Source of the DNA: a virus | Lineage: Duplodnaviria; Heunggongvirae; Uroviricota; Caudoviricetes | Direction: 5' to 3' (one strand) | Length of the DNA stretch: 3,621 nucleotides | Virus record (IMG/VR): IMGVR_UViG_2675903595_000013 | In this document: one piece after another, positions 510-3,621 of the stretch | How positions within the stretch are numbered: position 1 is the first letter of the stretch | Layout: each line of letters opens with the position of its first letter | The notes under the pieces: generated by a model | What the model saw: the letters and a program-made list of their open reading frames with translations, nothing else | What the model was told of the DNA's origin: nothing | Databases searched by the model: none | Translations under genes and position numbers: made by a program

Positions 510-767
510 CTACTTCGCTTTTGCTTCCGCTCGCTTACGCCGGCGCTCTTCTTTCCTCTCGGCTTTTGCCATGTCCATGAATGCCTGCATGATCGAGTTC
601 CGCATCATGTAGCTAACAAAGTGATGATTGACACAGCCGTTGAGGCGCAGCTGCTCGCCAAACTCATCCACCGAGGCCAATGCTTCCATCATGCCCTTCT
701 CGCCTTTCATGAACTCTGAGAAGTCGCGCCCCGCTCTGGAGGCGCATTCAATAACATGATCACTCAT
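510..767 (-). CDS. Hypothetical small protein (85 aa) with a highly basic Lys/Arg/Glu-rich C-terminal tail, translationally coupled to the upstream KilA-N gene
   Basis: ATG at 767-765 overlaps the stop of the KilA-N ORF (766-764) in an ATGA arrangement. The protein ends AKAERKEERRRKRAEAKAK. No family recognised from memory. Could be a separate gene or the C-terminal part of a longer ancestral KilA-N/antirepressor gene split by a frameshift. Confidence 0.5.
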   Translation of the reverse strand: MSDHVIECASRAGRDFSEFMKGEKGMMEALASVDEFGEQLRLNGCVNHHFVSYMMRNSIMQAFMDMAKAERKEERRRKRAEAKAK

Positions 768-1261
768 CCCGGAAGCCCGGGGATCGTAATCTGCAGCTGG
801 TTAGCCAGGGAGTTAATCTCAGCGACCAACACTGGCTTCGTATAGCGCCATGCTGCCAGCCCTTGTCCGCAGAAGCTCGCCATATCTTTCTTCTGGTCAA
901 ATTCATGACATTTCATGTTGAGCTGCGCACTTAAGCTGTTGCGATGCTGAAGTTCTCCGGTGAAGTAGTCATCGAGGACTTTATAGGCCGCGTACTTGAA
1001 CCCGGGGTTTAACCAAGCCGCATAATCGTAAGCAACAAACTTCCCGCCATATGTTCCACCGTGTACACCGCGCTCAGTAAAAACCACAGATTCGTGGTTT
1101 TTCTCCAGCTCGGCTAAGAACTCTTTGGTCTGCTTGTTTCGCAGGTAGTGGTAAGGCGATTCAGATTCACTTTTACCACTGGCTTTCCACATATCAGTGA
1201 GGCAGATCATGCCATCTTCACCGATACGAATTGGTTGATTGAAGAGGGTTAATGATTTCAT
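764..1261 (-). CDS. KilA-N domain DNA-binding protein (165 aa), phage-associated
   Basis: The translation carries the characteristic KilA-N (PF04383-like) signature: ...ICLTDMWKASGK..., YLRNKQTKEFLAELEK, GGTYGGKFVAYDYAAWLNPGFKYAAYKVL. ATG at 1261-1259. Lies immediately downstream of the lysis cassette on the same strand. Confidence 0.75.
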   Translation of the reverse strand: MKSLTLFNQPIRIGEDGMICLTDMWKASGKSESESPYHYLRNKQTKEFLAELEKNHESVVFTERGVHGGTYGGKFVAYDYAAWLNPGFKYAAYKVLDDYFTGELQHRNSLSAQLNMKCHEFDQKKDMASFCGQGLAAWRYTKPVLVAEINSLANQLQITIPGLPG

Positions 1262-1376
1262 AGCGTGTACCTACTCTTTGAAATGAACCTTTGCCGCACA
1301 GGAAACCAGCCCACCGAGGCTCGCCAGCACTAACTGGTATCCTCAAAGGCCCATTCCAAAGGGGCAGGTTCGGTGT

Positions 1377-1403
1377 AAAAAACATGCGTTGCGGTACGCA
1401 TTT
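1377..1403 (-). terminator. Candidate rho-independent terminator downstream of Rz/Rz1
   Basis: Plus 1384-1389 atgcgt pairs with 1396-1401 acgcat (6-bp stem, 6-nt loop). On the minus-strand RNA the hairpin is followed by G + UUUUUU (plus 1377-1382 aaaaaa). Sits ~60 nt after the Rz stop. The stem is only moderately GC-rich. Confidence 0.35.
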
Positions 1404-1462
1404 ATTGCAAAAAGCCCCGCATCGCGAGGCTCATTAAATGGACTTTGTGATTTGCAAAAAAA

Positions 1463-2741: not shown

Positions 2742-2772
2742 CAAAAAATGGAAAAACCCGCTCGACGGCGGG
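2742..2772 (-). terminator. Intrinsic terminator hairpin upstream of the holin gene, candidate tR'-like late-leader terminator (possibly bidirectional)
   Basis: Plus 2757-2761 cccgc pairs with 2768-2772 gcggg (5 GC pairs, 6-nt loop). On the minus strand the hairpin is followed by UUUUUCCAUUUUUU (plus 2742-2756). Plus 2752-2756 is an A-run and 2773-2775 is ttt. It sits ~110 nt upstream of the holin start, analogous to lambda tR' preceding S. Confidence 0.45.
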
Positions 2773-2820
2773 TTTAAGCTGTGTGACGAAGTAACCACTC
2801 TTAACAGCATAACCAATTTT

Positions 2821-3051
2821 GGTGATGCTGCCAACTTACTGATTTAGTGTATGATGGTGTTTTTGAGGTGCTCCAGTGGCTTCTGTTTCTATCAGCTGTC
2901 CCTCCTGTTCAGCTACTGACGGGGTGGTGCGTAACGGCAAAAGCACTGCCGGACATCAGCGCTATCTCTGCTCTCACTGCCGTAAAACATGGCAACTGCA
3001 GTTCACTTACACCGCTTCTCAACCCGGTACGCACCAGAAAATCATTGATAT
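2821..3051 (+). mobile_element. Truncated IS1 copy: left inverted repeat plus the first 231 bp only
   Basis: 2821-3051 is identical, base for base, to 3291-3521 of the downstream IS1. It begins with the IS1 left IR GGTGATGCTGCCAACTTACTGAT. Identity ends at 3052, where the IS21-family fragment begins. Confidence 0.85.
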
Positions 3052-3079
3052 TGTCAGCGCCAGTGATATAAGACGGTAA
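2876..3079 (+). pseudogene. insA: Truncated insA: first 58 codons (zinc-finger region) fused to 9 foreign codons, lacking the C-terminal HTH
   Basis: Translation is identical to InsA through ...THQKIID, then IVSASDIRR and a stop encoded by the adjoining IS21-like sequence. The CxxC...CxxC motif is retained; the HTH region ([22 protein letters not shown]) is absent. Confidence 0.7.
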
Positions 3080-3257
3080 TTCGCCATTTGGATTGTCCGC
3101 TCCACCCAACATGTTGTTTCCTTAAGGTTCTCACACCAGAAAGGACATCAACATGCTGAGCAGAGAGGACTTTTACATGATAAAGCAAATGCACCAGCAG
3201 GGCGCGTACATCGTCGATATTGCGACTCAGATTGGTTGCTCTGAACGGACGGTCAGA
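3052..3257 (+). mobile_element. IS21-family (IS21/IS100-like) left-end fragment: terminal sequence plus the 5' end of istA
   Basis: Begins TGTCAGCGCCAGTGATATAAGACGG..., which is IS21-family terminus-like. It contains an ORF start at 3153 whose translation MLSREDFYMIKQMHQQGAYIVDIATQIGCSERTVRR matches my recollection of the IstA N-terminus (HTH region) of IS21/IS100. The fragment is cut off after ~35 codons. Confidence 0.5.
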
Positions 3258-3317
3258 CGCTTCTCAACCCGGTACGCACCAGAAAATCAAGGTGATGCTG
3301 CCAACTTACTGATTTAG
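3153..3317 (+). pseudogene. istA: Truncated istA 5' fragment (N-terminal HTH, ~35 codons) reading through into IS1 sequence; chimeric 54-codon ORF
   Basis: ATG at 3153. After ...SERTVRR the frame continues into IS1-derived sequence ([18 protein letters not shown]) and stops at TAG 3315-3317 inside the IS1 left IR. Confidence 0.45.
3258..3289 (+). repeat. 32-bp direct duplicate of internal IS1 sequence (cgcttctcaacccggtacgcaccagaaaatca) between the IS21 fragment and the second IS1
   Basis: Identical to 3013-3044 in the first IS1 fragment and to 3483-3514 in the second copy. Followed by a single a (3290), then the IS1 left IR. Confidence 0.85.
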
Positions 3318-3345
3318 TGTATGATGGTGTTTTTGAGGTGCTCCA

Positions 3346-3621
3346 GTGGCTTCTGTTTCTATCAGCTGTCCCTCCTGTTCAGCTACTGACGGGGTGGTGC
3401 GTAACGGCAAAAGCACTGCCGGACATCAGCGCTATCTCTGCTCTCACTGCCGTAAAACATGGCAACTGCAGTTCACTTACACCGCTTCTCAACCCGGTAC
3501 GCACCAGAAAATCATTGATATGGCCATGAATGGCGTTGGATGCCGGGCAACTGCACGCATTATGGGCGTTGGCCTCAACACGATTTTACGTCACTTAAAA
3601 AACTCAGGCCGCAGTCGGTAA
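3346..3621 (+). CDS. insA: IS1 InsA (transposition inhibitor / N-terminal part of the InsAB' transposase), 91 aa
   Basis: Translation [91 protein letters not shown] matches IS1 InsA, with a zinc-finger and an HTH. GTG start at 3346; TAA stop at 3619-3621. Confidence 0.95.
3597..3603 (+). promoter_or_regulatory. IS1 A6C (AAAAAAC) programmed -1 ribosomal frameshift site for InsAB' transposase production
   Basis: The motif a-aaa-aac lies at insA codons 84-86 (L-K-N), the position where IS1 is known to frameshift into insB'. The insB' frame itself extends beyond the window. Confidence 0.7.

Follow-up and report, generated by a model that had tools for sequence, protein, structure and literature searches.

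The stretch of DNA analysed here, 3,621 nucleotides (nt) of the IMG/VR virus record IMGVR_UViG_2675903595_000013 (Caudoviricetes) and referred to in full as the window, carries a KilA-N gene and an overlapping gene for an 85-amino-acid (aa) protein, designated as p85, behind the spanin genes Rz and Rz1 of a lambdoid lysis operon. Judged by sequence comparison, the pair appears to be a mobile accessory cassette of the lambdoid late operon and to belong to the Bro network, a domain-shuffling DNA-binding family. The cassette is ordered as an intrinsic terminator, a structured leader of ~150 nt, the gene for a 165-aa KilA-N + ORF11CD3 protein and the overlapping p85 gene. Three features are new: p85 is strictly linked to KilA-N genes of two different architectures, its head is a shuffled domain that also occurs fused to T5orf172, and a covarying leader behind a terminator is common to many Bro-type and endonuclease-type cassettes. 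The best overall explanation, which we hold with middling confidence, is that the cassette encodes a DNA-binding protein of the Bro network that is expressed late, together with a small basic protein as its cofactor.

The Bro network consists of domain-shuffling phage proteins, among whose domains are KilA-N, Bro-N, Rha, ANT, P22_AR, ORF11CD3 and T5orf172 (PMC10111431). The proteins of the present cassette follow the same plan, in which an N-terminal DNA-binding module is joined to an exchangeable C-terminal module, and the swapping can be seen directly in the loci compared here. They differ from the network as described in that the p85 head lies outside its list of Pfam domains and that the structured leader and the terminator are not described in the literature that we searched (ORF11CD3, KilA-N, hkbK/hkbL, PhiR49 and rha/IHF).

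The KilA-N gene and its p85 partner

A first-pass annotation of the window, made from the sequence alone, had described a KilA-N domain protein coupled to a small open reading frame (ORF) of no assignable family with an extreme Lys/Arg/Glu-rich tail, and this description is borne out. In the 165-aa protein, Pfam recognized KilA-N (PF04383) at residues 9–101 with a score far over the gathering score (E = 1.3e-15; 57.6 bits against a cut-off of 23.8), and ORF11CD3 (PF10549) at residues 109–161 (E = 2.4e-13; 50.5 bits against a cut-off of 25). The Pfam search of this protein gave no ANT (PF03374)/KilA-C, P22_AR_N or P22_AR_C domain; no recognizable nuclease domain was found in it or in p85 by Pfam or NCBIfam, and sequence searches of the PDB returned no matches. 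The protein also matches PHROG 129 ('transcriptional regulator', 2.7e-61) and is 95–100% identical to the products of genes annotated as 'KilA-N domain-containing protein' in prophages and phages. Its AlphaFold2 model, with a predicted local distance difference test score (pLDDT) of 82, consists of a beta/alpha N-domain and two long helices (residues 86–130 and 132–156), both of which fall in the ORF11CD3 region. Compared with orthologues, non-synonymous change in the gene is far below synonymous change.

For p85, Pfam and NCBIfam returned no family, and PHROG 875, which matches it over the full length (residues 1–85 on profile positions 1–85, E = 1.3e-53), is a family without an annotated function. 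The tail, residues 67–85 (AKAERKEERRRKRAEAKAK), contains 10 Lys/Arg and 4 Glu among its 19 residues. In the AlphaFold2 model (pLDDT 92), helices span residues 3–20, 26–42 and 48–84, the last of which enters the Arg/Lys/Glu-rich tail. An in-frame hexanucleotide repeat encoding Ala-Lys lies at the 3' end of the gene (Table 1), and variants of 85, 87, 89, 91, 93 and 95 aa, found in otherwise near-identical prophages, are distinguished solely by how many (AK) units they contain (window and L008, L017, L026, L039, L053 and L086; L and P numbers are our labels for loci and database proteins, respectively).

p85 represents a very small family of enterobacteria: when 1.84 billion representative proteins were searched with a profile, 22 matched. 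The homologues fall into 137 clusters, almost all of which are 83–87 aa long. With one genome taken per species, six p85 loci were found, five in Enterobacteriaceae and the sixth on a contig labelled as a Nanosynbacter metagenome-assembled genome. This last copy (L087) is 100% identical to Escherichia coli prophage DNA and is probably contamination. The ratio of non-synonymous to synonymous substitution rates (dN/dS) of p85 was 0.08–0.30 against diverged homologues. By these comparisons, the KilA-N ORF and p85 are distinct, real genes under purifying selection.

The head of p85 (residues ~3–60) shares homology with the N-terminal parts of T5orf172 proteins (hhalign probability 95–96%), and a weak match to PHROG 4284 agrees with this homology. 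In the most distant relatives, P0133 and P0135, the p85 head, with the motif GC.xHHFVN, is fused to a T5orf172/MUG113 GIY-YIG-like domain, and ten more fusions of the p85 head to T5orf172 were found downstream of copies of the leader described below. In an unrelated low-GC phage, the P0135 gene has the lysis genes on one side and the small terminase gene on the other, an equivalent slot. The p85 head therefore seems to behave as a Bro-network module for which Pfam has no model, the nuclease-like domain apparently being replaced by a basic helix in p85. A zinc site formed by C8, C45 and H48/H49 was also considered and was rejected, as these residues are not conserved in the T5orf172-fused relatives.

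p85 was found next to a KilA-N gene without exception: at all 91 loci with a readable 5' side, p85 is immediately preceded by a KilA-N ORF. These upstream genes fall into two classes. Class 1 encodes the 165-aa ORF11CD3 type and its stop overlaps the p85 start as ATGA; in the window, where plus-strand bases 764–767 read 'tcat', this confirms the coupling that had been proposed. Class 2, found in HK97, HK022, mEp235, Scandinavium, Raoultella and Trabulsiella, encodes a 242–268-aa P63C type, and its junction with p85 reads TGAtcATG. The two classes have the KilA-N domain alone in common and are 23% identical, while the p85 proteins behind them are up to 95% identical and form lineages that track the host genus, not the partner class. 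It follows that recombination at the gene border has swapped the upstream gene. The architecture as a whole is that of the Bro network, with the same p85 behind KilA-N proteins that carry either ORF11CD3 or P63C, and with ORF11CD3 itself also found behind Rha and P22_AR_N.

The nearest known counterparts of the window pair are hkbK/hkbL of HK620 and the corresponding genes of E. coli prophages, the Shiga toxin (Stx) phages 1717 and 2851, ECP1 and PhiR49_1. In these the pair is ~95–99% identical (95–100% at the protein level) and shares the ATGA overlap and the position after Rz. Nothing of substance distinguishes the window copy from them, except that it is located on a remnant bounded by insertion sequences (IS). 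The first gene of PhiR49_1 is labelled 'KilA-N-ORF11CD3', and the E. coli prophage pair is labelled 'KilA-N domain-containing protein' and 'hypothetical protein'; the two genes are thus ordinary and already in the databases as uncharacterised genes. HK97 (gp p60/p61), HK022 and mEp235 (gp59/gp60) possess the same terminator, leader and slot after Rz, and a p85 that is 85–95% identical, whereas their upstream protein (242–263 aa) has P63C in place of ORF11CD3, is 23% identical and is joined by the TGAtcATG junction. In Klebsiella phage RAH1, the terminator, the leader and both genes lie between tail genes. To judge from these loci, the cassette moves as a unit, and the earlier view of the site after the spanins as a variable accessory slot holds good.

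KilA-N + ORF11CD3 orthologues also occur without p85. In Cronobacter (L103/L104), the gene occupies the equivalent slot with no small ORF; in L096, it is followed by an unrelated small ORF (3067–3183, cut at the contig end) with an ATGA overlap; and in L099, the ORF that comes after a KilA-N orthologue has 59 aa and retains no more of p85 than its first 14 residues. The dependence is one-way, p85 always having a KilA-N neighbour but not the other way round. Such a pattern speaks against an obligate toxin–antidote pair and in favour of p85 being an accessory factor of KilA-N proteins.

Several related loci deserve separate mention. phiEt88 (L095, about 1196–1370) has the same unrelated small ORF as L096, about 58 aa when read by eye and beginning MTKTEYNRIDASLEYL, and this ORF may be a p85 analogue. 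L099 (1–3534), a Salmonella Kottbus contig, contains four leader + Bro-gene units around its lysis genes, namely KilA-N+ORF11CD3, P22_AR_N+ORF11CD3, KilA-N+ORF11CD3 (the third, with the 59-aa ORF after it) and KilA-N. In L090 (2535–3998, Scandinavium hiltneri), an HNH-AP2 gene of the homing-endonuclease type (183 aa) lies between the leader and the KilA-N+P63C gene and looks as if it had been inserted into the cassette. In some prophages (L009, L010, L087 and L016), KilA-N is frameshifted or truncated (146–149 aa) and p85 is intact.

A covarying leader behind a terminator

The first-pass annotation had pointed to a terminator-like hairpin at 1377–1403 as separating the pair from the lysis operon. 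The hairpin does exist (ATGCGT-ACCGCA-ACGCAT followed by T6, 1401..1384 on the minus strand), but it is not the conserved terminator; kept in all related loci instead is the GC-rich hairpin of 1432..1409, located between Rz and the leader. This terminator aligns with counterparts in HK97, Klebsiella RAH1, mEp235 and other loci; the mEp235 record labels it a rho-independent terminator. The small hairpin is kept in other leader variants as GCGC/GCGC, in most of them without a T-run after it.

The leader, which ends at the KilA-N start codon, is made up of this small hairpin and a long hairpin (about 1357..1283), whose arms GAGCCUGAGA and ACAGGCUC are near-invariant. When 15 diverse leaders were folded jointly with RNAalifold, 21 pairs were obtained, 14 of them with compensatory changes. 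Standard pairs occupy 93.6% of the cells, compared with 28–50% when the partners are slid, and the covariation score is 0.436 against a shuffled mean of 0.177, the observed values being reached by none of 500 shuffles. The G-U pairs fit the coding strand, and the minimum free energy of the window leader folded as a single sequence has a z score of -3.3 relative to shuffles. The consensus helices leave the ribosome-binding site uncovered. A conserved upstream small ORF in the leader was considered and discarded, since indels between the variants break its frame.

The covariance model built from the leader, R1, scores 98.6 bits at 1414..1259 of the window and finds copies absent from its training, including four in tandem in L099, each of which precedes a Bro-network gene. 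It also finds copies before the HNH-AP2 genes of L083 and L090. A copy before the p85-head::T5orf172 gene of the low-GC phage mentioned above keeps the long hairpin and not the small one. A pattern scan of viral contigs, in which one sequence variant of the long hairpin was used, yielded 119 leader copies with a downstream ORF, and in 112 of these the leader is preceded by a terminator-like hairpin. The downstream genes encode Rha + ORF11CD3 (64 copies), KilA-N (15), p85-head + T5orf172 (10), KilA-N + P63C (8), Rha (5), ANT (4), a 198-aa protein of no assigned family (4), KilA-N + ORF11CD3 (3) and HNH_3 (1). Leader and terminator together were recorded in the window (1259–1432, minus strand), L099, L093, L083, L090 and L105–L184. 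Rfam 15 gave no match at E <= 1 in the leaders of the window, L099, L100 and L094.

We tentatively propose, at somewhat less than even confidence, that the leader is an undescribed cis-regulatory RNA shared by accessory or selfish cassettes, which would gate translation or mRNA processing in late transcription, and that p85 joins a hitherto unrecognised Bro-network domain, its head, to an arginine-rich tail binding nucleic acid, possibly the leader RNA itself. The ERRRKRAEAK of the p85 tail resembles the RRRERRAEK of lambda N, an RNA-binding peptide of the arginine-rich-motif type, a link weakened by the occurrence of the leader without p85 as well. A parallel is offered by T4, in which the translation of free-standing homing-endonuclease genes is controlled by RNA hairpins. 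There, as here, endonuclease-type or related selfish genes within a phage transcription unit are immediately preceded by a structured leader; however, the two show no sequence relationship, and the helices of the present leader miss the ribosome-binding site. Lambdoid phages, moreover, lack late promoters of the T4 type.

Expression and function of the cassette

A moron, an independently expressed insert in a late operon, would have a promoter of its own upstream of the cargo and a terminator downstream. The terminator of the present cassette sits upstream of the cargo, not downstream; the cassette does behave as an insert, as its place between tail genes in RAH1 shows. Between the terminator and the KilA-N gene, no sigma-70-like promoter site was found. 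The independent expression proposed in the first-pass annotation is unsupported, there being a conserved structured leader after the terminator instead of a promoter-like site. A -10 sequence (CATATT) noticed by eye after the small hairpin in some variants was rejected as a promoter, as no -35 accompanies it and the window variant lacks it. The lack of a promoter-like site after the terminator points to late read-through by a Q-modified, terminator-resistant polymerase, and such Q-dependent read-through is more likely than independent expression.

In the mechanism that we favour, the terminator would silence the cassette unless the phage Q protein makes RNA polymerase terminator-resistant, and the pair would be made late in lytic growth, with p85 translated by termination–reinitiation after KilA-N. 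The KilA-N protein would bind DNA through its N-domain and oligomerise through the long helical hairpin of ORF11CD3, and p85, with its compact two-helix head and basic helical tail, would serve as an accessory nucleic-acid-binding or targeting subunit of KilA-N proteins. The pair would most likely act as a late regulator of other DNA, whether of the host, co-resident prophages, satellites or rival phages.

Several points weigh against this explanation. Fold searches lend it little: the KilA-N model matched winged-helix, DdrC and Mbp1 DNA-binding domains weakly (all E >= 0.1), and p85 matched generic helical bundles only (McpS, designed proteins and MIT domains), which is uninformative. The promoter scan covered sigma-70 consensus sites only, and an activator-dependent promoter inside the leader is possible. 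Near-identical p85 proteins follow KilA-N proteins that are only 23% identical, and given such partners p85 may act on its own. In the window, IS1 replaces the upstream late-promoter region, which makes late-promoter-driven expression unlikely there; this copy is probably not expressed from the late promoter. Finally, the literature searched holds no functional study of the pair or of the leader, and no data on expression, binding or phenotype.

One alternative, which is not exclusive of late regulation, is that the cassette is in the main a selfish mobile unit akin to homing endonucleases, spreading between phage genomes with little benefit to the phage, its leader and flanks serving its own regulation and mobility. 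The same leader stands before HNH_3(-AP2) and T5orf172 (GIY-YIG-like) genes, the cassettes occur in tandem (four in L099) and in different genome slots, and the recombination junctions lie exactly at gene borders; Bro-network proteins have also been noted as resembling homing endonucleases (PMC10111431). Against these points stand the lack of a recognizable nuclease domain in either protein and the purifying selection on both, from which it follows that the proteins do something. We regard this as possible, though rather unlikely, as the chief account.

It is unlikely that the pair is an anti-phage defence or superinfection-exclusion module expressed by the prophage and protecting the lysogen in the manner of BstA. 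BstA is likewise prophage-encoded with a KilA-N-like N-domain, but it is about 307 aa long, has a C-domain of its own and occupies a different genome location (PMC8585504), whereas the present protein, at 165 aa, ends in ORF11CD3. A PADLOC search gave no match to the BstA model; its sole match, to the candidate PDC-S22 (E = 1.2e-8), aligns best over a stretch of only ~30 KilA-N residues. Accessory cargo is classically found in this slot, which fits defence; the conserved terminator and the lack of a promoter-like site before the gene nevertheless argue against expression in the lysogen.

We consider it quite unlikely that the KilA-N protein is an antirepressor that, helped by p85, binds and inactivates the repressor of its own prophage or of a different one. 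The RAH1 record is labelled 'antirepressor', the PHROG families 20738 and 2127 ('anti-repressor') match weakly, and ORF11CD3 is also C-terminal in P22_AR_N and Rha proteins. These labels, however, are transferred by similarity, and the ANT, P22_AR_N and P22_AR_C domains are missing, as noted above. Moreover, behind a late-operon terminator the protein would appear only once induction is already done.

Least probable among the functions considered, and in our view improbable, is a toxin–antidote or host-killing system in which the KilA-N protein is toxic like KilA of P1 and p85 neutralises or modulates it. Expression of P1 KilA kills the host, and P1 KilA has a C-terminus of the KilA-C/ANT type and is encoded in the kilA-repL operon. 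The homology between the two proteins is limited to the N-domain (~29% identity over residues 17–127), and the pair described here has neither a KilA-C/ANT C-terminus nor the kilA-repL operon setting. The tight translational coupling of the two genes would suit such a system; the obligate co-occurrence expected of a type II toxin–antitoxin pair was nevertheless not found, as KilA-N + ORF11CD3 orthologues occur with no small ORF (L103/L104), with an unrelated one (phiEt88 and L096) or with a 14-residue remnant of p85 (L099). The prophages with a frameshifted KilA-N and an intact p85 (L009, L010 and L087) say nothing either way on toxicity.

That the two ORFs are the frameshift-split halves of one gene, the locus being a pseudogene, can practically be dismissed: the 4-nt overlap, a PHROG 129 profile of 273 positions of which the 165-aa protein covers 3–174, and a database protein (P0001, 123 aa) that joins the ORF11CD3 end to p85 would fit it, but PHROG 875 covers p85 in 85 of 85 positions, nearly all p85 clusters are free-standing at the length given above, KilA-N orthologues are 164–189 aa long and in none of them is the p85 sequence present, the class with the TGA tc ATG junction likewise retains two ORFs, and the dN/dS of p85 in its own frame is about 0.1. 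P0001, the only fusion seen, is one isolated sequence whose linker is frameshifted; apart from this aberrant protein, no continuous ORF spanning both parts was found among the homologues. Programmed frameshifting was also rejected, as no slippery heptamer was seen before either type of junction when the sequence was read by eye.

Setting of the window copy and significance

The positions of the cassette and of the neighbouring lysis genes are listed in Table 1. A 201-nt spacer separates Rz/Rz1 from the KilA-N gene.

Table 1. Features of the cassette and of the adjoining lysis operon in the window
Feature	Position	Strand	Basis or location
Holin, P21-type	2415-2630	minus	Pfam match
Lysozyme	1918-2415	minus	Pfam match
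Rz	1463-1933	minus	Pfam match
Rz1, embedded in Rz	1516-1707	minus	Pfam match
Conserved intrinsic terminator, GAGCCTCGCG-AT-GCGGGGC then T5	hairpin 1432..1414, T5 1413..1409	minus	between Rz and leader
Structured 5' leader, ~150 nt, ending at the KilA-N start codon	1259..1414	minus	RNAalifold, covariance model
Leader helix 1, small GC hairpin	1378..1401	minus	pattern scan, leader alignment
KilA-N + ORF11CD3 gene, 165 aa	764-1261	minus	ORF list, Pfam
p85 gene, 85 aa	510-767	minus	ORF list, PHROG 875
GCR-AAR (Ala-Lys) in-frame hexanucleotide repeat	513-530	minus	p85 3' end

The cassette of the window lies on a 2.7-kb prophage remnant that is cut off by IS elements. The prophage piece spans 85–2818 and is bounded on both sides by mobile elements, and its bases 85–1500 are ~99% identical to many E. 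coli prophages. On the left, bases 1–84 are the end of a multi-copy element, of which an E. coli genome contains a median of 3 copies and at most 41, on chromosomes and plasmids; the sequence looks like an IS2 end or terminal repeat, and homology to intact prophages begins at base 85. The right boundary is IS1.

Upstream of the holin gene, a strong intrinsic terminator (2754–2775, minus strand) stands at the place of the lambdoid late-leader terminator (tR'). The homology to PhiR49_1 ends ~45 bp upstream of this pre-holin terminator, and with IS1 inserted at that distance the late promoter region is missing. An Rfam match to Trp_leader (2748–2839) scored below the gathering score, lies on the pre-holin terminator and was treated as a chance match. 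Two IS1 copies are present in direct orientation, at 2821–3056 (truncated) and 3291–3621, and between them is a 54-aa helix-turn-helix fragment of another transposase (3153–3317). A 32-nt segment internal to IS1 occurs three times (3013, 3258 and 3483), which indicates a nested or rearranged IS cluster. At the other end of the cassette, a hairpin at 481–505 (AAGCCCA-loop-TGGGCTT), right after the p85 stop, has no T-run on the minus strand; in intact prophages, it is located between convergent genes and may terminate the genes of the opposite strand.

For the present genome, the locus is an ordinary prophage remnant of no special consequence, and its main interest comes from the leader. Few unexplained genes are as common in temperate phages, prophages and satellites as those of the Bro network, which include KilA-N, Rha and Ant. 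The linkage of p85 to KilA-N, the fused p85 head and the common leader provide experimental handles on how such genes are switched on, what their products bind and whether they move as selfish elements.

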